Shown in pieces: positions 266 through 30,406 of a stretch of DNA of 32,000 nucleotides. Source of the DNA: Candidatus Saccharimonadota bacterium (GTDB lineage: Bacteria; Patescibacteriota; Patescibacteriia; 2-12-FULL-60-25); contig JALHOH010000001.1 of assembly GCA_022843095.1 (NCBI GenBank), positions 30,001 through 62,000 on the forward strand, given 5' to 3'. Positions within the stretch are counted from its first letter, which is position 1. Each line of letters opens with the position of its first letter. The notes beneath the pieces are model-generated. The model was not told the origin of the DNA. It did no database searches and saw only the letters and a program-made list of their open reading frames with translations. The translations under genes were made by a program, and so were the position numbers.

Positions 266-574
266 ATGCTCACGTTGCCTACCGCGCCACAGGCCGAGTC
301 ATCGACCTGTGCGTGTGCCCATTCACAATCTCAGAGTATGAATGCAGCACAACCCTCGGCACTTCCGAGCGCCGAGGTCATCCTCCTCACGCGACGAGAG
401 GTCGCGGCGGTTCTGCGCGTCTCGAAGATGACGGTCCTCCGCATGGTGGCGCGCCGAGAGCTTCCCGTGCTCCGCATTGGTGGCGGACTACGGTTCCGAC
501 GCACCGACGTGTTCGGGCTCTTGGCCGACTACCGCGCTGATCCACGCAAACCACAGCACTATGGCGACACGTAA
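266..574 (+). CDS. Excisionase-family (MerR-like) helix-turn-helix DNA-binding protein
   Basis: The C-terminal segment LLTRREVAAVLRVSKMTVLRMVARRELPVLRIGGGLRFRRTDVFGLL matches the excisionase/HTH_17 pattern. ATG 266 is preceded by AGGAA at 7 nt. An alternative ATG at 338 would give 78 aa. The gene overlaps the integrase start by 14 nt. Confidence 0.7.
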   Translation: MLTLPTAPQAESSTCACAHSQSQSMNAAQPSALPSAEVILLTRREVAAVLRVSKMTVLRMVARRELPVLRIGGGLRFRRTDVFGLLADYRADPRKPQHYGDT

Positions 575-1697
575 GATCCGGGGCTGGTGGAACGTCGACC
601 TTTACTGGAACGGCGTCCGGTACCGCAAGAGGAGCCCACTGAACACGCGGATGGGCGCAGAGCAGTACGAGATCCAGCTCCGGCAAGAGCTGCTCAGCAA
701 GGGATCGCTCGATCACCTCGACCCGACGCGCGCCGAGAAGCCGCTCACCTTCGGGGAGTTCGCGGAACGTTGGATGCTGGAATATGTCGCGGTGAACAAC
801 AAGCCCAGCGAACAGAAGGCGAAGCGAGGCCAACTTCGTTGTCACATCCTTCCGAGATTCGGTGAATTCGCGCTAAACGAGATCACCAACGGGGAAGTCG
901 AGCGCTTCAAGGCAGAACTGCTCGGGAAGAAGCTCTGCGCCAAGAGCATCAACAACTCGCTGACGATACTTCGGAAGTGCTTGGTCACCGCGAGTGAATG
1001 GGGGCTCCTTGAGAATGTCCCAAGAATCCGCCCCCTTCGGACTGCACGTCCGACCTACCGATACCTCCAGCAGGAAGAGGAGATGGCGCTTTTGTCCGCC
1101 GCGAAGCCATTCCGGTTCTGGTACGCAGCCATCCTTCTGGCTCTGCGGACAGGAATGCGATTCTCGGAAGTGTCCGCGCTGGCGTGGAAAGACATCGATC
1201 CGTCACGAGGCGATGCGACTGTACGCCGGGCAAATGTTCGGGGGCATATCGGCCCAACCAAGACATACACCGTACGGCGAGTCCCCCTCAGCACGGACGC
1301 ACGAGCGGCGCTCGAACAACTGGTGAAAAATGACGAATACGTCTTCGGGTATGGAGGAAAGCCCCTGTCGTACCACACAGCCTACGAGTGGCTCGTGCGG
1401 CTCTGTGAGCGCGCCGGGATCGATCCCTGCGGCTGGCATGACCTTCGCCACACCTTCGCGAGCCGCCTCGTCGCTCGCGGCGCGCCACTCCGCGCGATTC
1501 AAGAACTGCTCGGTCATGGATCGCTGGACATGACGCTCCGGTACGCCCACGTCGGACAGGCCGAACTCGTGGCCGCTGTCGCGCTTCTCGAAACTACCCC
1601 TAGTACTTGGGCACAGGGTGGGCACAACCCACCAGATGGAGCAAAAACCCACACGAAAACCGAGGCGCTCGCCACCGCAATTTCTCGCTGGAACTAA
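561..1697 (+). CDS. Tyrosine recombinase / phage-type integrase
   Basis: Catalytic pattern is present: ALRTGMRFSE (Arg), HDLRHTFAS (H-x-x-R) and LLGHGSLDMTLRYAHV (His...Tyr). The start is trimmed to ATG 561 (MATRKIRGWW...); the ORF-track start at 477 lies inside the upstream gene. Confidence 0.9.
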   Translation: MATRKIRGWWNVDLYWNGVRYRKRSPLNTRMGAEQYEIQLRQELLSKGSLDHLDPTRAEKPLTFGEFAERWMLEYVAVNNKPSEQKAKRGQLRCHILPRFGEFALNEITNGEVERFKAELLGKKLCAKSINNSLTILRKCLVTASEWGLLENVPRIRPLRTARPTYRYLQQEEEMALLSAAKPFRFWYAAILLALRTGMRFSEVSALAWKDIDPSRGDATVRRANVRGHIGPTKTYTVRRVPLSTDARAALEQLVKNDEYVFGYGGKPLSYHTAYEWLVRLCERAGIDPCGWHDLRHTFASRLVARGAPLRAIQELLGHGSLDMTLRYAHVGQAELVAAVALLETTPSTWAQGGHNPPDGAKTHTKTEALATAISRWN

Positions 1698-1699
1698 CG

Positions 1700-1729
1700 A
1701 AAAACTCCACTCGGAGAGTGGAGTTTTTC
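1700..1729. terminator. Bidirectional hairpin terminator between the integrase and the tRNA pair
   Basis: AAAA-ACTCCACTC-GGA-GAGTGGAGT-TTTTT, a 9-bp stem with an A-tract on one side and a T-tract on the other. Confidence 0.6.
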
Positions 1730-1731
1730 TG

Positions 1732-1818
1732 TGGTGGGCAGGCAAGGATTCGAACCTTGGAAGGCACAGGGCCAACAGATTTACAGTCTGTCCCGTTTGA
1801 CCGCTTCGGTACCTGCCC
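1732..1818 (-). tRNA. tRNA-Tyr (anticodon GTA), long variable arm, CCA encoded
   Basis: Reverse complement reads GGGCAGGTACCGAAGCGGTCAAACGGGACAGACTGTAAATCTGTTGGCCCTGTGCCTTCCAAGGTTCGAATCCTTGCCTGCCCACCA. It has a 7-bp acceptor stem, anticodon loop CTGTAAA and T-loop GGTTCGAATCC. Confidence 0.9.
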
Positions 1819-1819
1819 C

Positions 1820-1895
1820 TGGAGCCGTAGACCAGGATTGAACTGGTGACCTCGTCCTTACCATGGACGTGCTCTACCAACTGAGCTACTACGGC
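1820..1895 (-). tRNA. tRNA-Thr (anticodon GGT), CCA encoded
   Basis: Reverse complement reads GCCGTAGTAGCTCAGTTGGTAGAGCACGTCCATGGTAAGGACGAGGTCACCAGTTCAATCCTGGTCTACGGCTCCA. The cloverleaf folds, and the gene is 1 nt from tRNA-Tyr. Confidence 0.9.
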
Positions 1896-2904: not shown

Positions 2905-3660
2905 TTAATTCGGCATGGCCGTTCGACACAAGAGCCCGAACTGCCGAGGATCCAGCGACGCGCCACCCACCAACACCCCGTCAATATTGGTCGTCGACAG
3001 ATAATCCGCCACGTTGCGCGTGTCCACGGAACCGCCGTAGAGCACCGGGATCTCTTCTCCAAGTTTGCCGAACTTTTTGACCAGCACCGCGCGAATTGCC
3101 TCATGCATCTGCTTCGCATCTTCCGTGGAGCACGATTTGCCGGTTCCAATCGCCCAGACCGGTTCATACGCAACCACCATCGGCGCCTGACCATCCCCCT
3201 TTAATCCCGCAATCGCAGCCGTAAGCTCCGCACGCACCACTTTCAGATGCTCCCCCTTCTTACGCTGCGCCTCGGTTTCGCCGATGCAAATGACCGGACG
3301 GATCCCCGTCTTTTGCAGCGCCACTGCCTTTTTGGCCACCATCTCGTCCGTTTCACCAAGATGCGCCCGGCGTTCGGAGTGACCAACCAAACAAAATGAG
3401 GTCCCAAACTCCTTCAACATCGCCGGCGATACTTCACCGGTAAATGCCCCTTCATCGGCCCAAAACACGTCCTGCGCGGCAAGCAACGGCACACCTGCGC
3501 GACCCAGCGACGCGCGCGCCGCCGGCAACGATACATGCGGCACCGCAACCGCAATTTCGAGCTCCTTTGGGAGACGTTCGCGGCGGAACGCTCGGATCCA
3601 GGCGCCGGCCTTCACCGGGCCATAGTGCATCTTCCAGTTCGCAATGATGAGCTTGTGCAT
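2905..3660 (-). CDS. tpiA: Triosephosphate isomerase
   Basis: MHKLIIANWKMH..., VGHSERR, AYEPVWAIGTG and LYGGSV motifs. The start is trimmed to ATG 3660 because the longer ORF would overlap the upstream peptidase by 74 nt. Confidence 0.9.
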   Translation of the reverse strand: MHKLIIANWKMHYGPVKAGAWIRAFRRERLPKELEIAVAVPHVSLPAARASLGRAGVPLLAAQDVFWADEGAFTGEVSPAMLKEFGTSFCLVGHSERRAHLGETDEMVAKKAVALQKTGIRPVICIGETEAQRKKGEHLKVVRAELTAAIAGLKGDGQAPMVVAYEPVWAIGTGKSCSTEDAKQMHEAIRAVLVKKFGKLGEEIPVLYGGSVDTRNVADYLSTTNIDGVLVGGASLDPRQFGLLCRTAMPN

Positions 3661-3700
3661 AGGGGGCTTGGGGATAAGTTCCCCAGGTCTCGCCCAATTC

Positions 3701-5002
3701 CTACCGCACTTCAGGGTTTCCTGCAACAGGGGCAAACAACTTTTCGACCGTTTGCTGATCCTCAAATGGACCAATCACCGACGCGGCAAAATGTCCAGAA
3801 CGGAACAGGCGCTTCGCCACGGCACGGATATCCGCGGCCGTCACGCGTTCAAATTTCTTCAACCGCTCTTCCGGCGTCCATGTTTTTCCCTGAAACAACC
3901 ATTGCTTGCCGTACCAATCCGCTTGGTTGGAGGAATCTTCAAACGCGAGCAACATTTTTCCGCGAAGATAATCCTTTGCGCGGCGCAATTCCTCCGGTTT
4001 CACCAATTGCGTCTTCATTTTTTTCACCTCATCCCAAATCACCTTCACCGCTTCTTCGGTGCGCGTTTTCTCGAGTCCTGCCATGACGCTAAACACACCA
4101 ATATCTTCAAACGCCTGATGGCCCGCGTGGATGGAATAACACAAGCCGCGACGTTCGCGCACTTGGATAAACAGTCGCGAAGACATCGTCCCGCCCAAAA
4201 TCACTCCCAAAAGCGATGCCGCCGGAATCTGCTCGTCCCCGATCCCGAGCCCGTGCCATGCCATCCCAAGCTGCACCTGTTCCGTATTCTTTTTTTGAAA
4301 CCGTACCGGGTTCGCGATGCGTTCTGGCGCGACAAACGGCGCGAACGTCGTATCCCGAGGCGTGGTTGGCTTTTTCACAGACCCAAACGTCTTTTCAAGC
4401 AATTTCCACAGTCCCGGCACGATCTTCCCCGCCACCACGACGGCCATTCTGGACGGAACATAATACGCATCACGATACGCAATCAGCTGGTCACGCGTGA
4501 CAGTTTTGATCACCTCACGAGGACCCGCAATATTCCAACCAAGGGACGAATCCGGATACAACGCCTCCTCCAACAGATCCTCGATGTGCATCCGTGGATT
4601 ATCTTCATACATGTTGATCTCCTCCACGATCACCCCGCGCTCCCGCTCGATTTCTTTTGCGTCGTATTTGGAATGAAACAACATGTCATGCAACAACTCC
4701 ACGGCGATCGGTGTCCGTTCCGCCGCCATTTTGACGTAGTACGCCGTCGCATCTTTTCCCGTAAACGCGTTGTATTCTGCCCCGAATCGATCCAATTCCT
4801 TGCTAATATCAAGCGTCGTCGGACGTGCTTTGGTCCCCTTGAACATCAGGTGCTCGATAAAATGCGACGCGCCGTTGATCTCCTTGGATTCATAGCGCGA
4901 TCCCACCTTCGTAAACACCATGATCGTCATGGACGTCGCCCCTTTTTGCGGGACCAAAATCACTTTCATCCCGTTCTTCAGCGTTTTCAGCGTCGGTTTC
5001 AT
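3701..5002 (-). CDS. M16-family (pitrilysin-like) zinc peptidase
   Basis: Inverted zinc motif HFIEH...FKGT near the N-terminus. At 433 aa the length is typical of the family. Confidence 0.9.
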   Translation of the reverse strand: MKPTLKTLKNGMKVILVPQKGATSMTIMVFTKVGSRYESKEINGASHFIEHLMFKGTKARPTTLDISKELDRFGAEYNAFTGKDATAYYVKMAAERTPIAVELLHDMLFHSKYDAKEIERERGVIVEEINMYEDNPRMHIEDLLEEALYPDSSLGWNIAGPREVIKTVTRDQLIAYRDAYYVPSRMAVVVAGKIVPGLWKLLEKTFGSVKKPTTPRDTTFAPFVAPERIANPVRFQKKNTEQVQLGMAWHGLGIGDEQIPAASLLGVILGGTMSSRLFIQVRERRGLCYSIHAGHQAFEDIGVFSVMAGLEKTRTEEAVKVIWDEVKKMKTQLVKPEELRRAKDYLRGKMLLAFEDSSNQADWYGKQWLFQGKTWTPEERLKKFERVTAADIRAVAKRLFRSGHFAASVIGPFEDQQTVEKLFAPVAGNPEVR

Positions 5003-11305: not shown

Positions 11306-12412
11306 ATGCGCGTCGCCATTGTCCATGATTACCTGATCCAAGACGGCGGCGCCGAACGCGTGGTGCTGGCCATGCATGAGCTCTGGCCGGATGCGCCGAT
11401 CTACACCCTGTTTCATGATCCGCGCACCACCCATCCCGGATTCAAACGCGCACACATCATCCCGTCTTCGCTGAATGCACTCCCCTGGGCGAAATCACAC
11501 TACGAATGGTATTTGCCGCTCATGCCGCAAGCCGTTGAACAGTGGGATTTCACGGGGTTTGACGTGGTCATCTCCAGCGCGTCCACCTTTACCAAGGGGA
11601 TTATCGTCCCACCCACGACACTCCACGTTTCGTACATTCATACGCCCACCCGTTTTTTATGGAACGAGCGCATCGGGTACGTCAGCGAGTTGCCTCGCAG
11701 CGGGTTCGTGAAGCGTATCCTTCCCTTCGCACTCCATCGTTTGCGGCAGTGGGATGTGCTCGCCGCCGCACGACCGGATCTCATCCTCACAAACAGCGCG
11801 ACCTCGGCCGCGCGCATCCGACGTTTTTATCGTCGTGATGCCACCGTGTTACACCCTCCCGTGGATACGGAGACCATCACGCCAAAGGGATTGCCCGGTG
11901 TGTTTTGGCTTGCCGGTGGACGACTCAAACCCTACAAACGATTTGATCTGCTCGTGGAGGCGTTTCGCGGCACCGATCTTCCGCTCGTCATTTTTGGCGA
12001 TGGACCGGAACGCGCACGGCTTCAAGCGCGCGCCACCTCCAATATCCGCTTTGTTGGCAACATCGACGACATCGCAAAAAGCGAATTATTCGCGCGTGCC
12101 ATCGGGTACCTGTTTCCGCAGATCGAAGATTTTGGCATCACCGCGGTCGAAGCGATGGCCGCCGGCAAACCCGTCATCGCATTTCGCGCAGGCGGGGCAG
12201 AAGAAACCATCAAGCATTTGGAAACCGGACTCTTTATCGACATGCAAACACCCGAAGCGTTTCGGGCGGCCGTACACCAATTTGATCCAACCCGGTTTTC
12301 CGCCAATACCATCCGCTCCCATGCAGAAACCTTTAGCAAAGCGCGCTTCCACGAGGCGCTCCGCACTCAGGTCGAAGCGGCTTGGAAACAATTTGTATGC
12401 ACTGGATCCTAG
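11306..12412 (+). CDS. GT4-family glycosyltransferase
   Basis: MRVAIVHDYLIQDGGAERV..., and the C-terminal EDFGITAVEAMAAGKPVIAFRAGGAEETI (E-x7-E region). Confidence 0.9.
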   Translation: MRVAIVHDYLIQDGGAERVVLAMHELWPDAPIYTLFHDPRTTHPGFKRAHIIPSSLNALPWAKSHYEWYLPLMPQAVEQWDFTGFDVVISSASTFTKGIIVPPTTLHVSYIHTPTRFLWNERIGYVSELPRSGFVKRILPFALHRLRQWDVLAAARPDLILTNSATSAARIRRFYRRDATVLHPPVDTETITPKGLPGVFWLAGGRLKPYKRFDLLVEAFRGTDLPLVIFGDGPERARLQARATSNIRFVGNIDDIAKSELFARAIGYLFPQIEDFGITAVEAMAAGKPVIAFRAGGAEETIKHLETGLFIDMQTPEAFRAAVHQFDPTRFSANTIRSHAETFSKARFHEALRTQVEAAWKQFVCTGS

Positions 12413-13470
12413 ACGCGCGTCCCCTGCTTGATCCGGCAGGCGGAGGGATTCCTCGTGTTGCGCGGGGTATCCTTCCTGCCCTTGCGCAGACGCTCCACGC
12501 ACGTGGCCACCGCGCCACACTTCTTGGAACCGGATTTCGCCGACCAACACATCCCCTTTTGCAAACGGTTCCGTATCAGCATCTCCGCATCCCAAATATC
12601 CTGCATTCTTTAAGCCTCGCCTGCGGGATCACGGCCTACGGCGATTGGCCACGCGCTTCAACACCTGATGCGCTCTTTTTTCCAAACCTAGGATTCATGG
12701 GACAACCTCGCGTCCCATACGCCGTCCTGGTGCACGATCTCTCGTTCCTGATCGAACCTCGCTGGTTTTCACAAAAATCACGTCTGTGGCATTGGGCGAT
12801 CCGGGCCACAAGGCAATTACAAAATGCGACCTGGCTCTTTGCCGTTTCTGAACATACCAAACGCGATCTTGAGCGCCTCCTTGGAATCCCGGAGACACGC
12901 ATCCACGTCATTCCCCTCGGCATTGATCCCCTTTCAACCGAACCCGCGCCACTCCCCGCAGCCGTGCAAGGAAAACGGTTTCTCCTTGCGTTAGGAGCTC
13001 ACGATCCGCGCAAAAACGCGCGCTGTGCAGTGACGGCGTGGCGCGAACTGTGTCGGGATCCGCGCGTTGCCGACGTGGAACTCGTCCTATGCGGTAGCAC
13101 AAACGCGCTCCCTCGGGAGTTGTGCGAGTCCGGGGCGCGCCACCCGCTCTACCTCGCGCGTCCATCCGATGCGCAGCTTGCAACCCTCTACCAAAACGCA
13201 TCCGCATTCCTCTATCCAAGTTGGTACGAAGGATTTGGGATTCCGCTCCATGAAGCGGCGCAAGCTGGAACGCCGTGCCTTGCAAGCGACACAGGAGCAC
13301 TCCCGGAGACAGCCCCAACGGGAACACGTTTCGCCCCTCCGATGAAACCGCATCTCTGGCGGGCACTTTTAGAGGACGTTCTGTTGCGTCCAAACCTTCA
13401 TGCAACGCGGTCAGAAACACGGGGATGGAATGCGGCGGCCGAAACGATTGCGAATGTATTTCTAAAATAA
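12397..13470 (+). CDS. GT4-family glycosyltransferase
   Basis: YPSWYEGFGIPLHEAAQAGTPCLASDTGALPE. ATG 12397 overlaps the upstream GT by 16 nt; the ORF track uses TTG 12382. Confidence 0.85.
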   Translation: MHWILDARPLLDPAGGGIPRVARGILPALAQTLHARGHRATLLGTGFRRPTHPLLQTVPYQHLRIPNILHSLSLACGITAYGDWPRASTPDALFFPNLGFMGQPRVPYAVLVHDLSFLIEPRWFSQKSRLWHWAIRATRQLQNATWLFAVSEHTKRDLERLLGIPETRIHVIPLGIDPLSTEPAPLPAAVQGKRFLLALGAHDPRKNARCAVTAWRELCRDPRVADVELVLCGSTNALPRELCESGARHPLYLARPSDAQLATLYQNASAFLYPSWYEGFGIPLHEAAQAGTPCLASDTGALPETAPTGTRFAPPMKPHLWRALLEDVLLRPNLHATRSETRGWNAAAETIANVFLK

Positions 13471-13498
13471 AACACCCCGGCCCAGAAGTGGGACGGGG
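13464..13498 (-). terminator. Hairpin terminator of the 663-aa gene
   Basis: Minus-strand reading is CCCCGTCCCA-CTTC-TGGGCCGGGG (one mismatch) followed by TGTTTTATTTT. The T-tract overlaps the stop codon of the convergent GT gene. Confidence 0.55.
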
Positions 13499-13516
13499 CG
13501 CGCAACGCGAACGTTG

Positions 13517-15508
13517 CTAGTTGATCTTGTCGCCTGGTTTCGGCGGTTGCGGAGACGTCTCCGCGTGCCCGTTCACGCCGTTCAGCTTGGACGGACGCTC
13601 TTCGATGAGCGAAGGTTCGGGGAACACGGTCTTCGCACGACCGAGCTCCTCCAGCTCTTCGCCGCGGGCCTGCTCCGCCTGGAGGCGAAGCATGCGCTGC
13701 ATGAGCGGAATGCGCGGATCCGGAAAATGGCGAGGCCACTCCGGAACCGGCATCGATCCGTCTTCGAGCGCGCGTTCCAGCGCGTCGATTTCGCCGAGGA
13801 GCGGCTCGTGCACCGCAGACCATTGAGCGAGACGCAGGCGACGGATGTCCTCCGGCGCCTTCTTGTCCGCCGCGAGCCGCGCGGCGTGCGCGTCGGTTGC
13901 GGCGAGCACCTTGGACAGCTGCTGCCGCGCCTCCAGGAGGCGCGAACGCGCATGCGTGAGCCGCTCGAGCTCCGGCTGCGGGTCGATCCACCCGTACTCG
14001 CGGGCGAGATCCTCGCGCATCCGATTCCACGGCTGAAACTTCGGATCTCGTGGATCCTGCGAGTTGTTCAGCTCTGCGGGCCACGAAGGCACGGGCGCTC
14101 CACGCAGACGGAGCCGCTCGGCCGTTGCGGCCAGCTCGTGGATCTTTGGTTGGACGAACGAGCGGAACTCGTCGCGCAACGCCGAGATCACCGCATCGAA
14201 GCCGAGGTGACGATTGGTCCCCTCGACCTTCTTTTGCGAGGTCATGTGGGCCACTCCCTCGAAGGTCAGAAGCGCCTGCGCCACGTCGCGTGCCTTGGCG
14301 TAGAACGCCTCAGTCATGCGGACGACCTCGGGATCGCTCCCGTGAGCCTTCAGATCCTGAAAGCCCATGTTCTGGACGACCTCCACCGCTTCAGGGTTAC
14401 CCGCCGCCGCCTGGGACGCGAGGGAGAAGTACTCCTTCGCATCCTTCGACTGCGTGAGCTTGAGCCCGAGCACAAGGAAGCCGATCGCCATCATGACGAT
14501 GCGACACGCCCAGGTGATGGCATTGGTCGTACCATCTTCCTTGCGCAGAGCCTCGAGGGTCCTGTACCGCGCAAGAAATCCGCGCGGCTCCTGCCACTCA
14601 CCGCCATACAGCGCAGCAAGCGTGGCCGGAGGAAGGAGACGTACACGCGCAAGCGCAGCATCGCGCTCGTGTTCGAGTCCGCGGACCGCGCTGCGACCAT
14701 TGGTCGCTGCCGTCCCCGTAAGCCGCTCGGTTTCCCGATCGAACTCGCGAAGGACATTCGCAGCCTGGATCTCGAACGCATCCAGCGCATTTTGCGCCAC
14801 CGCGATCTGTGCGGTAAGCGCGGTGTACACGTTCCCCGCCCCGCGCCGTCCCGAAGGACCGGCGCCCGCGGCTTCACGTGTTGCGCTCTCGCGCGCCGTT
14901 TGAACGGCACGGGTCAGCGTCTCGCGTTGGGCACGCTGCCCAGCGACCAGCTGTTCACGCTGACGATCGCGCGTCCCATGAGAACGCGCCGTGTCTCCCC
15001 CCGATTCCTGAATCGCGCGCGCAATGCGCTCGTTCCAGACGCGCGCCTCACGCTCGACAGCGTCGTGGCGGATCTGATCCACCGCGACCTTCTCGCGCGA
15101 CTCGATGCGTCGATCGATCTCGGGTGCGAACACCGCGAGCTCGGTCGGCACCGCGGTCACCGCGGAGAGCGCGAGGAGGATTCCTGCGCGGAGGATAAGT
15201 CCGCGCCAGAGCCCTGCCCCGTTCTTCGTGTCCATCACCACGACCGAACGGTCGTAGGCGAGGACGAGCGCCGCAAAGGCGAACCCGAGCGGGATCGCCT
15301 GCGACCACGACCCGAGTGCGAGGTGCCACGTCCGGCACCAGACCCAGAGGTCGATGAAGAACTGAAGCCCGAGCGCAAGGCCGAGAAACCCAACCTCGCG
15401 AACGACCTTCTGGGTCCGGAGCGTCGCTCCATAGACCCAGAGCCCCAGCAGATCCCCCAGGACAACCCCGGGGTGGCGGCGCATGACGCCCATGTTTTCC
15501 GTGCTCAT
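13517..15508 (-). CDS. Membrane/coiled-coil protein: DUF4407-like N-terminal half plus an unrecognised ~310-aa C-terminal extension
   Basis: Four N-terminal TM helices carry YDRSVVV and AVPTELAVFAPEI motifs. They are followed by a ~200-aa R/E/A/Q-rich coiled coil, a fifth TM (ITWACRIVMMAIGFLVLGL) and a soluble tail. GAAAGG lies 5 nt upstream of the ATG. The fully open antisense frame (13514..15541) is R/L-rich and judged an artefact. Confidence 0.8.
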   Translation of the reverse strand: MSTENMGVMRRHPGVVLGDLLGLWVYGATLRTQKVVREVGFLGLALGLQFFIDLWVWCRTWHLALGSWSQAIPLGFAFAALVLAYDRSVVVMDTKNGAGLWRGLILRAGILLALSAVTAVPTELAVFAPEIDRRIESREKVAVDQIRHDAVEREARVWNERIARAIQESGGDTARSHGTRDRQREQLVAGQRAQRETLTRAVQTARESATREAAGAGPSGRRGAGNVYTALTAQIAVAQNALDAFEIQAANVLREFDRETERLTGTAATNGRSAVRGLEHERDAALARVRLLPPATLAALYGGEWQEPRGFLARYRTLEALRKEDGTTNAITWACRIVMMAIGFLVLGLKLTQSKDAKEYFSLASQAAAGNPEAVEVVQNMGFQDLKAHGSDPEVVRMTEAFYAKARDVAQALLTFEGVAHMTSQKKVEGTNRHLGFDAVISALRDEFRSFVQPKIHELAATAERLRLRGAPVPSWPAELNNSQDPRDPKFQPWNRMREDLAREYGWIDPQPELERLTHARSRLLEARQQLSKVLAATDAHAARLAADKKAPEDIRRLRLAQWSAVHEPLLGEIDALERALEDGSMPVPEWPRHFPDPRIPLMQRMLRLQAEQARGEELEELGRAKTVFPEPSLIEERPSKLNGVNGHAETSPQPPKPGDKIN

Positions 15509-15583
15509 TCGAACCTTTCCGCGGCTATTTGCCGCTTATAAAAAGAACTGGATCACCCGCCAAACGTGGCAAGATGAACCGGT

Positions 15584-15612
15584 GTTTTTACCAGAAAATA
15601 GCCATTTTGTCA
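15584..15612 (-). promoter_or_regulatory. Candidate sigma70-type promoter for the 663-aa gene
   Basis: Minus-strand reading is TTGACA (15612-15607), a 17-nt spacer, then TAAAAA (15589-15584). It sits ~75 nt upstream of the ATG in an AT-richer 200-bp spacer. Confidence 0.45.
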
Positions 15613-15709
15613 ATCCCCCGAGCGCCATATTCGCTGCAACTAGAAGAGAACGGTTATTATGCAAAAACAGACCCAATACTGGATCCGTTTTCTCTATGCC
15701 TATGGAGTC

Positions 15710-16495
15710 CTATTCTTTCTCCTCTGTGGGTTCTTCCGGCTTCTCCTCTTCTTCCGCGACAAACCGCACCGGCAAGTCCTCCGCACCCACCAACGCGTCG
15801 TCGGTACTAGGGATCGCAGCCTCTTCGGCGGCGTAGCGCACCTCTTGATCCAACACCTCAAGCGCAATCGTCTCCCCTCCAAACAACACCTTGTCTTCGT
15901 ACATCTCCAATTTTTCTAGCAGTGTACTTGCCTGCTTTGGGGAACGTCCGGCGATCTGCTTCAGCATTTGCCAGCGCTTCTTCATCCCCTCCAATTCGGT
16001 TTGCGCATCCTCGACAAGTTTCTGGAGGGACGTTTGATGCGACTGCCAATACCGCAACCGAATTTCCGGACGCAACGCCTCAAGCTCCATCTCCTCTTGA
16101 TCGTGGATGGCATACGACGCGTCAGAAGATCCAAGCACCTCATCCAAAGACTTGCACTCGATGTTTTTGCACAGTCGTTCCAACAGCACGCGCGTGGTTG
16201 GCCGCACGGATTCCAACACTTTTTTCCACTCGTCTTTGGCGCCAACGGTCTGAAAAAACTGCATCGTCGCGCGACGCGCCGGATACGTTGCCATCGCCAA
16301 ATTCTTGGCCACCTCGGCCAGCCGTTCGGTGGTCACATGTTCCCCCGCCTCCAAATCCTCAATCGCCTGAAGATACGGCGCGCGGTCGGATTCCGGGAGA
16401 TACTCCACCACCTCTGTCATAAAATCCGCGACGGCAAAGGCATCGCGACGATCGACGTACCGAATGGGCATACGCCTACAGGATACCAGCGCCAT
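15710..16495 (-). CDS. Hypothetical acidic, predicted all-helical protein with a poly-Glu tail
   Basis: Long ORF with backbone-like codon usage and C-terminal tail FVAEEEEKPEEPTEEKE. I recognise no motif. An alternative start is ATG 16471 (MPIRYVD...). Confidence 0.7.
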   Translation of the reverse strand: MALVSCRRMPIRYVDRRDAFAVADFMTEVVEYLPESDRAPYLQAIEDLEAGEHVTTERLAEVAKNLAMATYPARRATMQFFQTVGAKDEWKKVLESVRPTTRVLLERLCKNIECKSLDEVLGSSDASYAIHDQEEMELEALRPEIRLRYWQSHQTSLQKLVEDAQTELEGMKKRWQMLKQIAGRSPKQASTLLEKLEMYEDKVLFGGETIALEVLDQEVRYAAEEAAIPSTDDALVGAEDLPVRFVAEEEEKPEEPTEEKE

Positions 16496-16542
16496 TGACC
16501 GACGACCAGAATGGCGGTATTCGTGTGTCGGAGGGAAGGTGG

Positions 16543-16794
16543 ATGAAACCGGAAACGCCGAAACGGCAACCTTACGGAAATGAGGGCATTTTCAAAAATA
16601 CCCCTATCCAGATCTGGCCAACGCTCTTTCAATCGCTCATCAAGAAGCAATTGCAAGCCCCCGTACCAACGCGGGAACTCTTTCTCTACATTTTGTCACG
16701 CGATCGCTCGTGCATGGACGCACTTACCAAACTGTATCCCGACCACGCCGGGGTGATCCGTGAAATCTTGAATCCGCCACCACCCGAACCTTAG
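16543..16794 (+). CDS. Hypothetical small protein (83 aa)
   Basis: ATG 16543 is preceded by GGAGGGAAGGTGG. A strong intrinsic terminator follows 9 nt after the stop. There is no recognisable motif. Confidence 0.5.
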   Translation: MKPETPKRQPYGNEGIFKNTPIQIWPTLFQSLIKKQLQAPVPTRELFLYILSRDRSCMDALTKLYPDHAGVIREILNPPPPEP

Positions 16795-16802
16795 GGGTCA
16801 CT

Positions 16803-16830
16803 GACAGGTTTTCAGACCTGTCGTTTTTTT
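16803..16830 (+). terminator. Rho-independent terminator
   Basis: GACAGGT-TTTCAG-ACCTGTC followed by G plus seven T. Confidence 0.7.
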
Positions 16831-16840
16831 ATCCGCTGGA
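16831..16840 (+). repeat. 10-bp direct repeat copy 1 (ATCCGCTGGA)
   Basis: Exact copy abutting the -35 hexamer of the rpsA promoter candidate. Confidence 0.6.
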
Positions 16841-16869
16841 TTGACAGAACCGCATTCAATCCCTATCGT
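16841..16869 (+). promoter_or_regulatory. Candidate sigma70-type promoter for rpsA
   Basis: TTGACA (16841-16846), a 17-nt spacer, then TATCGT (16864-16869). Confidence 0.5.
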
Positions 16870-16893
16870 TTGACCACCTCTTTCTAAAAGAGC

Positions 16894-16903
16894 ATCCGCT
16901 GGA
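16894..16903 (+). repeat. 10-bp direct repeat copy 2 (ATCCGCTGGA)
   Basis: Exact second copy 63 bp downstream of copy 1, within the rpsA leader. Confidence 0.6.
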
Positions 16904-16970
16904 CCGTGGAATTTACCACCGGCAACGGGGCCCTGGTACGCAAACTCCGGGGTTTATAGACAAAAAAACA

Positions 16971-18068
16971 GTGCGTATGAACGTCACAACCTCACAGGCA
17001 CCGGAAATGCAGAAATTGCTGACCGATGCCCATTTGGCCTATCCAAACGTCGGCGACGTGGTGAAGTGCGTCGTGATCGCCGTCGGCCGCAACGAAGTGC
17101 GCTGCGACATTGGCGGGCTCGCGATCGGGCTCATCCGTGGTCCGGAATTGGATAAGAACATGGACCTCCGCCTCGGCGACGAAGTGGAAGCAACCGTGAT
17201 CGAACTCGAAAACGAGTTCGCAGAACTTGAACTCTCGCTGAAAGGCGCGGGTCGCAAGCGCTCCTGGGATAAGATCAAAGAATTGTTCACGGCAGGCACC
17301 GTGGTCTCGATCAAGATCATCGACGCCAACAAGGGCGGGCTTATCACCCGTGTCGAGAACGTTCCGGCCTTCTTGCCGGTTTCCCAGCTCTCGCCAAACC
17401 ACTACCCACGTGTCGCTGGTGGCGAAAAGCAAAAGATCCTCGAGAAGCTGAAGCAGCTCGTGGGAACGCCGCTGGATGTGAAGATTCTGGACGTGAACGA
17501 AGGGGAAGAAAAAATCGTCGTCTCCGAAAAGGCGGTGTGGGAAACCAAGCAGGAATCCGTCCTCGCCAAGTACAAGATCGGTGACCACGTCGAAGGAGCC
17601 GTGACCGCCGTGACCGACTTCGGTGCATTCGTCCGCTTTGACGAAGCGTTGGAAGGGTTGGTCCACATCTCCGAAATCGCCTGGCAGCGCATCGATCACC
17701 CACGTGACGTGCTCAAGGTCGGCGATACGGTCCGCGCCGAGATCATCAACATCGAAGGGTCCAAGATTTTCCTCTCGATGAAGAAGCTCGTCGAAGATCC
17801 GTGGAAGAACGTGGCGGCGAAGTACAAGGTCGGCCAGTTCGTGAAGGGCCGCGTACTCAAGATCAACCCGTTCGGGCTCTTCGTGGAGCTTGATCCGGAC
17901 ATCCATGGCTTGGCGCACATCAGCGAACTCTCCAACCGTCCGGTGAAGGACGTGAACGAGGTCGCACGCGTCGGCGATGAATTCGACTTCCGCATCATCA
18001 ACATCGATGCCGAAAACCACCGCTTGGGACTCTCGCTCCGCAAGCCGAAGGAAGAAACAAAGGCGTAA
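16971..18068 (+). CDS. rpsA: 30S ribosomal protein S1 (four S1 domains)
   Basis: Repeated S1-domain pattern: GDVVKCVV, GTVVSIKIIDANKGGLI, GDHVEGAVTAVTDFGAFVRF, GQFVKGRVLKINPFGLFVEL. The start is either GTG 16971 or ATG 16977, and there is no SD. Confidence 0.9.
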   Translation: MRMNVTTSQAPEMQKLLTDAHLAYPNVGDVVKCVVIAVGRNEVRCDIGGLAIGLIRGPELDKNMDLRLGDEVEATVIELENEFAELELSLKGAGRKRSWDKIKELFTAGTVVSIKIIDANKGGLITRVENVPAFLPVSQLSPNHYPRVAGGEKQKILEKLKQLVGTPLDVKILDVNEGEEKIVVSEKAVWETKQESVLAKYKIGDHVEGAVTAVTDFGAFVRFDEALEGLVHISEIAWQRIDHPRDVLKVGDTVRAEIINIEGSKIFLSMKKLVEDPWKNVAAKYKVGQFVKGRVLKINPFGLFVELDPDIHGLAHISELSNRPVKDVNEVARVGDEFDFRIINIDAENHRLGLSLRKPKEETKA

Positions 18069-29791: not shown

Positions 29792-30406
29792 ATGCGTCCG
29801 TCACACATCATCTTCTCCCTTCTCACGCTCCCCCTTCTTGCCGCAGGGTGCAGCGAAACGCCGGCCACTCCGTCTCCCACACCGTCTCCGTCTCCCGCAC
29901 CAGCGCCTTCCGCGCCGTCTGCGCAAACCACGGATCCCGATCTCGCCCTGTTGCGTACGCTTCCACGCGTAGACGCCTGCACACAACTCACACAAGAAAA
30001 GGCAGCGACCATCTTTCCGGGCAATACGTTTTCCCTCAAAGATCAGCGTCCCGCAGGAGAATCTGGCTATGAAATCCTTTCCGCCTGCTATTGGATCGCC
30101 TCCACGACGCAACCCGTCATCCCAGCGTATGTCGACCTCACGTCACGGACAAACGTCTCTGAAAAACGCGCTACGGATTTCTTAGCCACGCGACTGGACC
30201 TCGCGCGTGAAAGTGGACGAACCTACCGACTGGAGCCATCCCTCGGGAAAGATGCGTTTGTCACCTCACATAACGTCTACGGAGTGCGTACGATCATCGT
30301 GGAGTTCGTGAAAGGAACAACCTACTACGAACTCAAAGGATCGGCGACGGGGAAGGAAGAAGCCGCCATCGCAAACGCGCTCATCACCTTTGCAAAAAGC
30401 CTGTAG
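29792..30406 (+). CDS. Lipoprotein of unknown function with a Pro/Ser/Thr-rich linker
   Basis: MRPSHIIFSLLTLPLLAAGC lipobox, then TPATPSPTPSPSPAPAPSAPSA. The start is trimmed to ATG 29792. Confidence 0.7.
   Translation: MRPSHIIFSLLTLPLLAAGCSETPATPSPTPSPSPAPAPSAPSAQTTDPDLALLRTLPRVDACTQLTQEKAATIFPGNTFSLKDQRPAGESGYEILSACYWIASTTQPVIPAYVDLTSRTNVSEKRATDFLATRLDLARESGRTYRLEPSLGKDAFVTSHNVYGVRTIIVEFVKGTTYYELKGSATGKEEAAIANALITFAKSL

Follow-up and report, generated by a model that had tools for sequence, protein, structure and literature searches.

The window analysed here, a stretch of 32,000 nucleotides (positions 30,001 to 62,000 of contig JALHOH010000001.1) from a Candidatus Saccharimonadota bacterium, carries on its minus strand a gene for a membrane protein of the DUF4407 family, the C-terminal part of which is built from a tandemly repeated module. 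Attention had been drawn to this gene by an earlier reading of the letters alone, made by a model and called here the sequence-only reading, which described a solitary 663-aa open reading frame (ORF) of foreign composition and considered a function in phage exclusion. The ORF was confirmed as a real single gene, apparently self-contained (Table 1). The NCBI-derived public copy of the protein begins at an ATG five codons downstream and has 658 aa, and a Shine-Dalgarno-like GGAAAGG, read off the sequence, stands 5 nt ahead of the first ATG of the gene.

The membership of the first ~350 aa in DUF4407, which had been proposed from the letters, was borne out by the Pfam profile PF14362, which matched aa 66-271 with an E-value of 1.5e-21 and 77.4 bits against a gathering cutoff of 31.3. 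Beyond this family and two noise hits, nothing was found in Pfam at E <= 1; NCBIfam gave no match for the protein and PHROGs only noise (E 0.11). An exhaustive phmmer search against 1.84 billion cluster representatives returned 172 proteins at E <= 1e-3, including 59 at E <= 1e-30, of which the best non-self protein was 37% identical, and about 40 of the hits align from ~aa 20 to ~aa 610. The clusters looked up have only one to three members, which indicates that the family is rare and divergent. The alignments used included one of 30 full-length homologues (A1) and one of the C-terminal part (A3). All 30 homologues match the DUF4407 hidden Markov model (HMM), and R107 is invariant among them, which we take to be the single completely conserved arginine of the Pfam description. 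With the full sequence or A1 as query, a word-indexed protein search found no protein besides this one, and with A3 it found none at all; low-complexity words probably swamped its pool of 8000 candidates. In the searchable literature, DUF4407 occurs by name only in tables of three papers, and no functional study was found.

The protein was modelled with AlphaFold2 from A1, and the full-length model reached a mean predicted local distance difference test score (pLDDT) of 85.8. Hydropathy marks three strong hydrophobic helices ahead of the coiled-coil region (aa 39-57, 67-92 and 107-128), and the model places the helices of the membrane region at 33-65, 68-91 and 97-126; aa 14-30 are weakly hydrophobic, with a short helix only in the model. 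Four transmembrane (TM) helices followed by a fifth had been proposed; the membrane bundle and the returning helix are both present, but the bundle has three strong helices, and the supposed fifth is the fourth strong TM helix. Charged residues are conserved in or beside the membrane helices, namely D86, D93, the invariant R107 and E123, and at the fourth helix R336 within it and K350 at its end. Where the third helix continues into the first long helix, the motif TAVPxELxxFxxEI is conserved across A1. The ~200-aa coiled coil of the sequence-only reading is indeed a long helical stretch, corrected by the model to an antiparallel hairpin of about 180 aa and 10-13 nm, the two helices of which have 86 residues (128-213) and 65 residues (226-290). 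The loop at its tip has the pattern ExxGxGxSGxxGxG, in which E212, G215, S219, G223 and G225 are each conserved in at least 25 of the 30 homologues, and a further motif, YGGxW...RGFL, is conserved ahead of the last TM helix. The Pro-rich tail at the C-terminus, modelled with low confidence, is probably disordered.

The orientation in the membrane was considered from the mean net charge (K+R minus D+E) over the 30 homologues, which is +0.9 before the first TM helix, +1.1 in the loop between the second and the third, -2.0 after the third, -0.5 before the last and +0.6 after the last. In three homologues the repeat domain is followed by a terminal zinc ribbon, a kind of domain that is normally cytoplasmic. 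Taken together, the charge pattern and these tails favour a topology in which the N-terminus would lie inside, the hairpin outside the membrane and the repeat domain in the cytoplasm.

The C-terminal 310 aa of the protein contain two copies of one module. When the two copies were compared by hhalign, a probability of 99.1% and an E-value of 6.5e-19 were obtained over 105 columns, which identifies this region as a tandem duplication of a module of ~120 aa. Each copy comprises a helical hairpin (393-424/437-468 and 511-547/552-583) and a Trp/Pro-rich loop after it, and the motif G..VPxWP...DPR...W...L...GW accordingly occurs twice in A1. A separate model of aa 352-628 gave a pLDDT of 90.2 and a predicted TM score (pTM) of 0.77. 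The HMM of this domain gave a signal in 107 of the best 150 phmmer hits listed, and coverage by the HMM indicates a copy number from 0 to ~4 across DUF4407 proteins. The short canonical proteins (~460-560 aa) have only the motif after the last TM helix and no module, stopping at the juxtamembrane YxSLxxQAAAG region (aa 352-385); one module is seen in many proteins of 500-630 aa and two in about 50 metagenomic representatives, and in proteins of 830-1018 aa the domain envelopes are ~130-260 aa longer than with two modules, as would be expected for three or four copies. Obvious fragments aside, the module always follows a DUF4407 N-terminus.

No match to the module was found in Pfam in any of the 30 members, and a profile search of PDB sequences gave coiled-coil noise only. 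Structural comparison, as the sequence-only reading had recommended for this part, was carried out with Foldseek against PDB (full-length and C-terminal models, the latter covering aa 352-628) and against BFVD (C-terminal model), and nothing was found at E <= 1e-3; the best E-value of the full-length model was 0.5, and the domain model reached 0.74 and 2.1. The C-terminal half had been called novel; this holds in that Pfam, NCBIfam, PHROGs, PADLOC, PDB and BFVD contain no match, but the sequence is not unique, since a whole subfamily has it as a conserved repeat module. In the comparison with PDB and BFVD structures, the module may provisionally be regarded as a new fold family. It is an undescribed, confidently folded module of variable copy number in a long-form subfamily of DUF4407. 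The canonical members have the same TM bundle, long helical hairpin and returning TM helix, as well as the invariant R107 and the AQAAAG motif after the membrane; unlike them, this protein does not end soon after the last TM helix and adds two 120-aa modules.

The sequence-only reading had further given the gene its own promoter and terminator. Both sequences are present. The promoter-like TTGACA-17-TAAAAA was not called in a consensus promoter scan because the final T is missing from its second hexamer, and chance alone would place one site of this kind in the region; terminator-like patterns occur there at chance frequency (6 found against 5.1 expected). Both signals are therefore weak evidence. 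The pile-up of spurious overlapping ORFs on both strands was confirmed and includes an antisense ORF of 675 aa on the plus strand (13514-15541), which covers the entire gene and which gene finders could mistake for a real one; since the frame supported by homologues lies on the minus strand, this ORF is a shadow produced by the high GC. An Rfam scan of 12000-17500 gave no match, and neither direct nor inverted repeats, an insertion scar nor att-like repeats were found flanking the gene.

The DUF4407 gene is flanked in the window by conserved housekeeping and glycosyltransferase genes. After two tRNA genes near its left end follow genes for a TPR protein, tpiA, an M16 peptidase, a class II aminoacyl-tRNA synthetase (aaRS), frr, a BNR-repeat protein, holB, a Bac_transf sugar transferase, an HD protein and two GT4 glycosyltransferases (GTs), and then, on the opposite strand, the DUF4407 gene, which is convergent with the cluster of Bac_transf and two GT4 genes and 46 bp away from it. 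Beyond it lie hyp261, rpsA (a four-domain S1 protein), ftsH, a further HD protein gene, pilB, tsaD and an ABC-F protein gene. The longest ORFs of tpiA (2905-3774) and of the upstream M16 peptidase (3701-5002), both on the minus strand, overlap by 74 nt; the true start of tpiA is probably further downstream, because the TIM match in Pfam begins at residue 41 of the ORF. The acidic protein hyp261, of which 15% is Glu, lies upstream of rpsA and adjacent to it in many loci, and it is present in about 50 of 80 Uhrbacteria loci with 27-47% identity. Its gene is thus conserved specifically in this lineage, and independently of the DUF4407 gene. A tyrosine recombinase directly adjoins the genes for tRNA-Tyr and tRNA-Thr (477-1895), a typical arrangement of an integration site, and any element integrated there would run leftwards, beyond the window. 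The idea that these genes mark an island holding the DUF4407 gene was rejected, as eight conserved housekeeping genes intervene; the recombinase, the only integrase in the window, lies 12 kb from the DUF4407 gene.

Table 1. Features of the DUF4407 gene, its neighbourhood and selected homologue loci (positions refer to the window unless a locus is named; residues are those of the 663-aa protein).
Feature	Position	Strand	Basis or remark
Tyrosine recombinase, 406 aa	within 477-1895	+	Phage_integrase + SAM-like N-terminal domain
tRNA-Tyr	1732-1818	-	
tRNA-Thr	1820-1895	-	
Terminator-like hairpin + T-tract, unverified	13463..13490	-	between the convergent GT gene and the DUF4407 gene
CDS, stop included: DUF4407-family membrane protein with C-terminal tandem module	13517..15508	-	
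Low-confidence Pro-rich tail, aa 629-663	13520..13624	-	pLDDT 40-52
Module copy 2, aa 511-628	13625..13978	-	hhalign, model
Module copy 1, aa 386-510: helical hairpin, then G..VPxWP...DPR...W...L...GWxDP	13979..14353	-	hhalign; pLDDT >90
Juxtamembrane helices, aa 352-385, YxSLxxQAAAGxxxA...MGY motif	14354..14455	-	alignment, C-domain HMM
Fourth strong TM helix, aa 326-351	14456..14533	-	hydropathy, model, alignment
Long antiparallel helical hairpin, aa 127-310	14579..15130	-	AlphaFold2 model, pLDDT ~90
Gly-rich loop at hairpin tip, aa 212-225	14834..14875	-	A1 alignment, model
Three TM helices, aa 39-126	15131..15394	-	hydropathy, A1 alignment, model
Promoter-like TTGACA-17-TAAAAA, unverified	15585..15613	-	sequence
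hyp261, acidic 261-aa protein	15710-16495	-	no Pfam match
Big_7 surface-protein slot, L025-L076	GT1b-hyp261 gap, e.g. L027 6063-8948		
HtrA-like protease, L083	3600-4928		
HtrA-like protease, L235	13974-15206		
HtrA-like protease, L236	11082-12215		
HtrA-like protease, P0016 contig			

A scan of a genome collection anchored on rpsA yielded 80 loci, almost all from metagenome-assembled genomes (MAGs) of Candidatus Uhrbacteria or Patescibacteria, with rpsA identities of 58-88%. This assigns the window to a bacterium of the Uhrbacteria group, within the candidate phyla radiation. Many of these MAGs bear the title 'uncultured Gammaproteobacteria bacterium' (L001-L074), and their rpsA is 71-87% identical to that of the window, many of them with synteny of the Uhrbacteria type; these titles appear to be taxonomic mislabels. 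The order of the flanks (sugar transferase-GT-GT ... hyp261-rpsA-ftsH) is kept in about 30 of the 80 loci, as judged by tblastn with ten proteins of the window. Neither tblastn nor a profile HMM applied to every ORF of 60 aa or more found a DUF4407 homologue in any of the 80. The inspection of the interval between the GT genes and rpsA, which had been suggested as a check, showed that the interval from the second GT gene to hyp261 is -10 to 176 bp in L009, L022, L036, L040 and L049, so that the slot is empty in these five, and 1.4-7.3 kb in the remaining loci. The longer gaps mostly contain genes of a single protein family, 820-1320 aa in length, that combines a signal-like hydrophobic helix at the N-terminus with a Big_7 Ig domain, and sometimes also TruD or other genes; tblastn found no member of the Big_7 family in the window. 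Since the relatives have in this slot either no gene or, usually, one for a secreted surface protein with an Ig domain, and in none of the 80 loci a DUF4407 gene, the latter is accessory at this site, and the gap between the GT genes and hyp261 looks like a variable cell-surface locus beside a glycan-synthesis cluster.

The same comparison bears on how the gene came to this place. An ancestral gene could have been lost from the relatives, in which case the locus would not be an insertion site. Identity in rpsA to the nearest relatives sampled is no more than 83-88%, too low to trace the recent history, the varied content of the slot implies frequent loss and replacement, and insertion scars are absent, all of which would suit such a loss. 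However, the gene stands at this site in 0 of the 30 syntenic loci, so that several independent losses would be required, and we consider this explanation unlikely. Gain of the gene in the lineage of the window is the more parsimonious course and the probable one, though such a gain is not demonstrably recent.

Composition was the main ground on which the sequence-only reading had called the gene foreign, and the figures themselves were largely reproduced. The DUF4407 gene has 66% G+C against 53-61% in 21 other genes, above its neighbours as had been counted by hand, and its total GC has z = 4.5 against 22 neighbours. Its GC at the third codon position (GC3) is 0.78, the maximum of the window (rpsA reaches 0.77), and its GC at the first position (GC1), 0.73, is also the maximum. 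AAG makes up 19 of the 20 Lys codons and GAG 41 of the 55 Glu codons (75%), so that the description of both as almost all AAG and GAG is right for Lys and overstated for Glu; in pilB, the start of which had been said to use mostly AAA and GAA, AAG accounts for 10 of 41 and GAG for 8 of 47.

As evidence of recent transfer, these figures carry little weight. The codon-usage distance of the gene to the other genes is 0.204, inside the range of its neighbours (0.126-0.274), and its GC at four-fold sites, 0.79, is of the order seen locally in rpsA (0.81), tpiA (0.76), ftsH (0.75) and hyp261 (0.75). Of the GC excess of 9.5 points, an amino-acid composition rich in Ala, Arg, Glu and Gly accounts for +4.1 (z 1.5). 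The choice of codons contributes +5.4 (z 2.8), a share that matches that of rpsA (+5.2). In seven of the seven loci compared (L083, L235, L082, L172, L234, L236 and the window, with backgrounds of 46-62% GC), the long-form DUF4407 gene lies above its neighbours, by +5 to +11 points in GC and +8 to +23 at GC3. Repeated acquisition from donors of high GC could account for this, as could an intrinsic bias. In L083 and L235 the gene occupies the same position beside pyruvate kinase-HtrA-NrdR-FtsZ, where identity is 56-69% between the neighbouring proteins and no more than 37% between the DUF4407 proteins; that the gene is GC-rich through such long residence indicates that the excess is a property of the family and no mark of recent arrival. 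The compositional case for a recent transfer of the gene is thus largely neutralised and remains a weak one. For methods of this kind it may be kept in mind that a 9-point GC excess mimicked horizontal transfer, although it is partly a matter of amino-acid composition and partly a family-wide trait.

The homologues of the long form were found in eight contexts, all of them made up of core housekeeping genes. They include the acyltransferase/DoxX/EPSP-synthase-like/M50 peptidase neighbourhood, the pyruvate kinase/HtrA/NrdR/FtsZ neighbourhood (twice), rnpA/dnaA/dnaN, ATP synthase operon/PRPP synthase/SecDF and radical SAM/AMMECR1-like/VirD4-like; murA-like and ftsZ/ftsA genes are also among the neighbours. 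The P0016 contig has the same TPR-tpiA-M16-aaRS block as the window and is the only contig with that block. An HtrA-like Trypsin/PDZ protease lies one to four genes from the long-form gene in four of the eight contexts and not in the window (Table 1); this proximity may be coincidence. The homologues are chromosomal and non-mobile in character.

These contexts bear directly on the suggestion of the sequence-only reading that the gene is a moron or a single-gene abortive-infection (Abi) or phage-exclusion effector, horizontally acquired, which would sense infection and collapse the membrane. In its favour, the gene is solitary and absent at this site in 80 relatives, the family is rare and fast-evolving with tiny clusters, the number of repeats varies, the GC is above that of the flanks, and charged residues are conserved within TM helices. 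However, the searches for such a system gave no true match. In PADLOC-DB v2, the check that had been proposed for a defence role, no family was found at E <= 1 for the DUF4407 protein, and PADLOC on 29 long homologues and 10 short DUF4407 proteins gave only single-member coiled-coil noise (E 2e-4 to 6e-3). With the protein and one short relative as queries, tblastn found no match in the collections of phages (50,697 records) and plasmids (72,556 records), and the pattern TAVPxELxxFxxEI had 0 matches in viral contigs. A gapped degenerate DNA pattern for WP...DPR...GW was too permissive, matching at least 120 metagenome stretches, with 29 viral matches; only L112 and L172 are true homologues among the matches listed, and none of the 29 viral loci encodes a homologue. 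Flanking repeats and an adjacent integrase are absent, the eight homologue contexts are housekeeping in character without defence or mobile genes, and the gene has been retained in synteny over the deep divergence between L083 and L235. Like the tail of Zorya ZorA, the coiled coils of JetC/MukB-like proteins and single-gene Abi systems, the protein combines TM helices with a very long coiled coil and is solitary and sporadic; unlike them, it is encoded without partner genes and outside any mobile or defence setting, and the coiled-coil matches are isolated and weak. On present evidence a moron, Abi or defence role is without positive support, the gene is not a new defence system, and we regard such a role as distinctly improbable.

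The neighbouring glycan cluster raises another explanation, namely that the protein is a partner of this cluster resembling polysaccharide co-polymerases (PCPs) such as Wzz or Wzc, which would set glycan chain length or export, with the cytoplasmic domain in a regulatory role. In PCP-2a proteins a TM helix, an extracytoplasmic helical hairpin, a second TM helix and a cytoplasmic C-terminal domain follow one another, and the predicted topology here resembles this order, including a cytoplasmic C-terminal domain as in Wzc; the gene moreover lies convergent with the Bac_transf and GT4 genes at 46 bp, and the slot in the relatives holds a surface protein. The likeness is one of architecture only. 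The protein has four TM helices and not two, and it has neither the alpha/beta base domain nor a kinase domain; no match to Wzz (PF02706) or any other PCP family in Pfam was found at E <= 1, and no PDB fold at E <= 1e-3. Thirty relatives have the same GT cluster without the gene, a GT cluster adjoins the gene in none of the eight homologue contexts, and the gene is on the opposite strand, outside the GT operon, so that a role of this kind seems very improbable. Least probable of all is an EzrA-like scaffold of cell division or morphogenesis, in which a membrane anchor is followed by cytoplasmic hairpin repeats that bind cytoskeletal proteins: the tandem helical repeats, probably cytoplasmic, behind a membrane anchor, the non-significant Foldseek matches to spectrin and alpha-actinin repeats (ranks 2, 19, 28 and 50) and two homologues four genes from ftsZ-ftsA would suit it, but the spectrin-type E-values are at least 1.8, the repeats are two-helix hairpins with a Trp/Pro-rich loop and not three-helix spectrin repeats, proximity to FtsZ is seen in one lineage only, and a rare family absent at this site in 80 relatives is a poor fit to a core role in division. 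The Abi, PCP and EzrA explanations each fail at least one of the tests that were run.

We therefore turn to the reading that we tentatively prefer, and to which we give somewhat less than an even chance: the long-form DUF4407 protein would be an envelope-spanning structural or tether protein, gained as an accessory in a variable surface slot. The three TM helices run straight into the ~10-13 nm hairpin, which would project from the cell membrane; its Gly-rich tip loop could contact the wall, an S-layer component or a partner cell; and the chain returns through the fourth TM helix into the two copies of the module, which would lie in the cytoplasm and may serve as a docking platform of variable copy number for a partner. 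The strut or tether would probably act as an oligomer. A cell-surface role fits the slot, which otherwise holds a surface protein and lies next to the glycan cluster. Several points weigh against this reading. The role is taken from the architecture alone, and no characterised homologue backs any function; no neighbour is common to all eight homologue contexts, which provide no conserved partner gene; the positive-inside signal is modest, and the orientation could be reversed. The fast divergence (37% against 56-69% in the neighbours), the tiny clusters, the sporadic distribution and the variable repeats are, in addition, also typical of conflict genes. The mechanism is the weakest step of the argument, and our confidence in it is low to moderate.

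For the DUF4407 family, the analysis defines a long-form subfamily and provides an explicit architecture and topology open to testing. For the biology of the candidate phyla radiation (CPR), it points to a variable surface slot beside a conserved glycan cluster of Uhrbacteria, a kind of locus expected to matter for attachment and host interaction. A bolder extension, which we hold to be improbable, is that the long-form proteins form a class of their own among devices that span the envelope of ultra-small (CPR/Patescibacteria-like) bacteria, in which an extracellular coiled-coil stalk of ~12 nm would signal to the new cytoplasmic 'WP-DPR-GW' module. If this were true, contact of the tip with the wall, the S-layer or a host cell would be transmitted through the membrane, the copy number of the module would be tuned between lineages, and the GC excess and fast divergence would reflect recurrent exchange or diversifying selection on a gene of host interaction or conflict.

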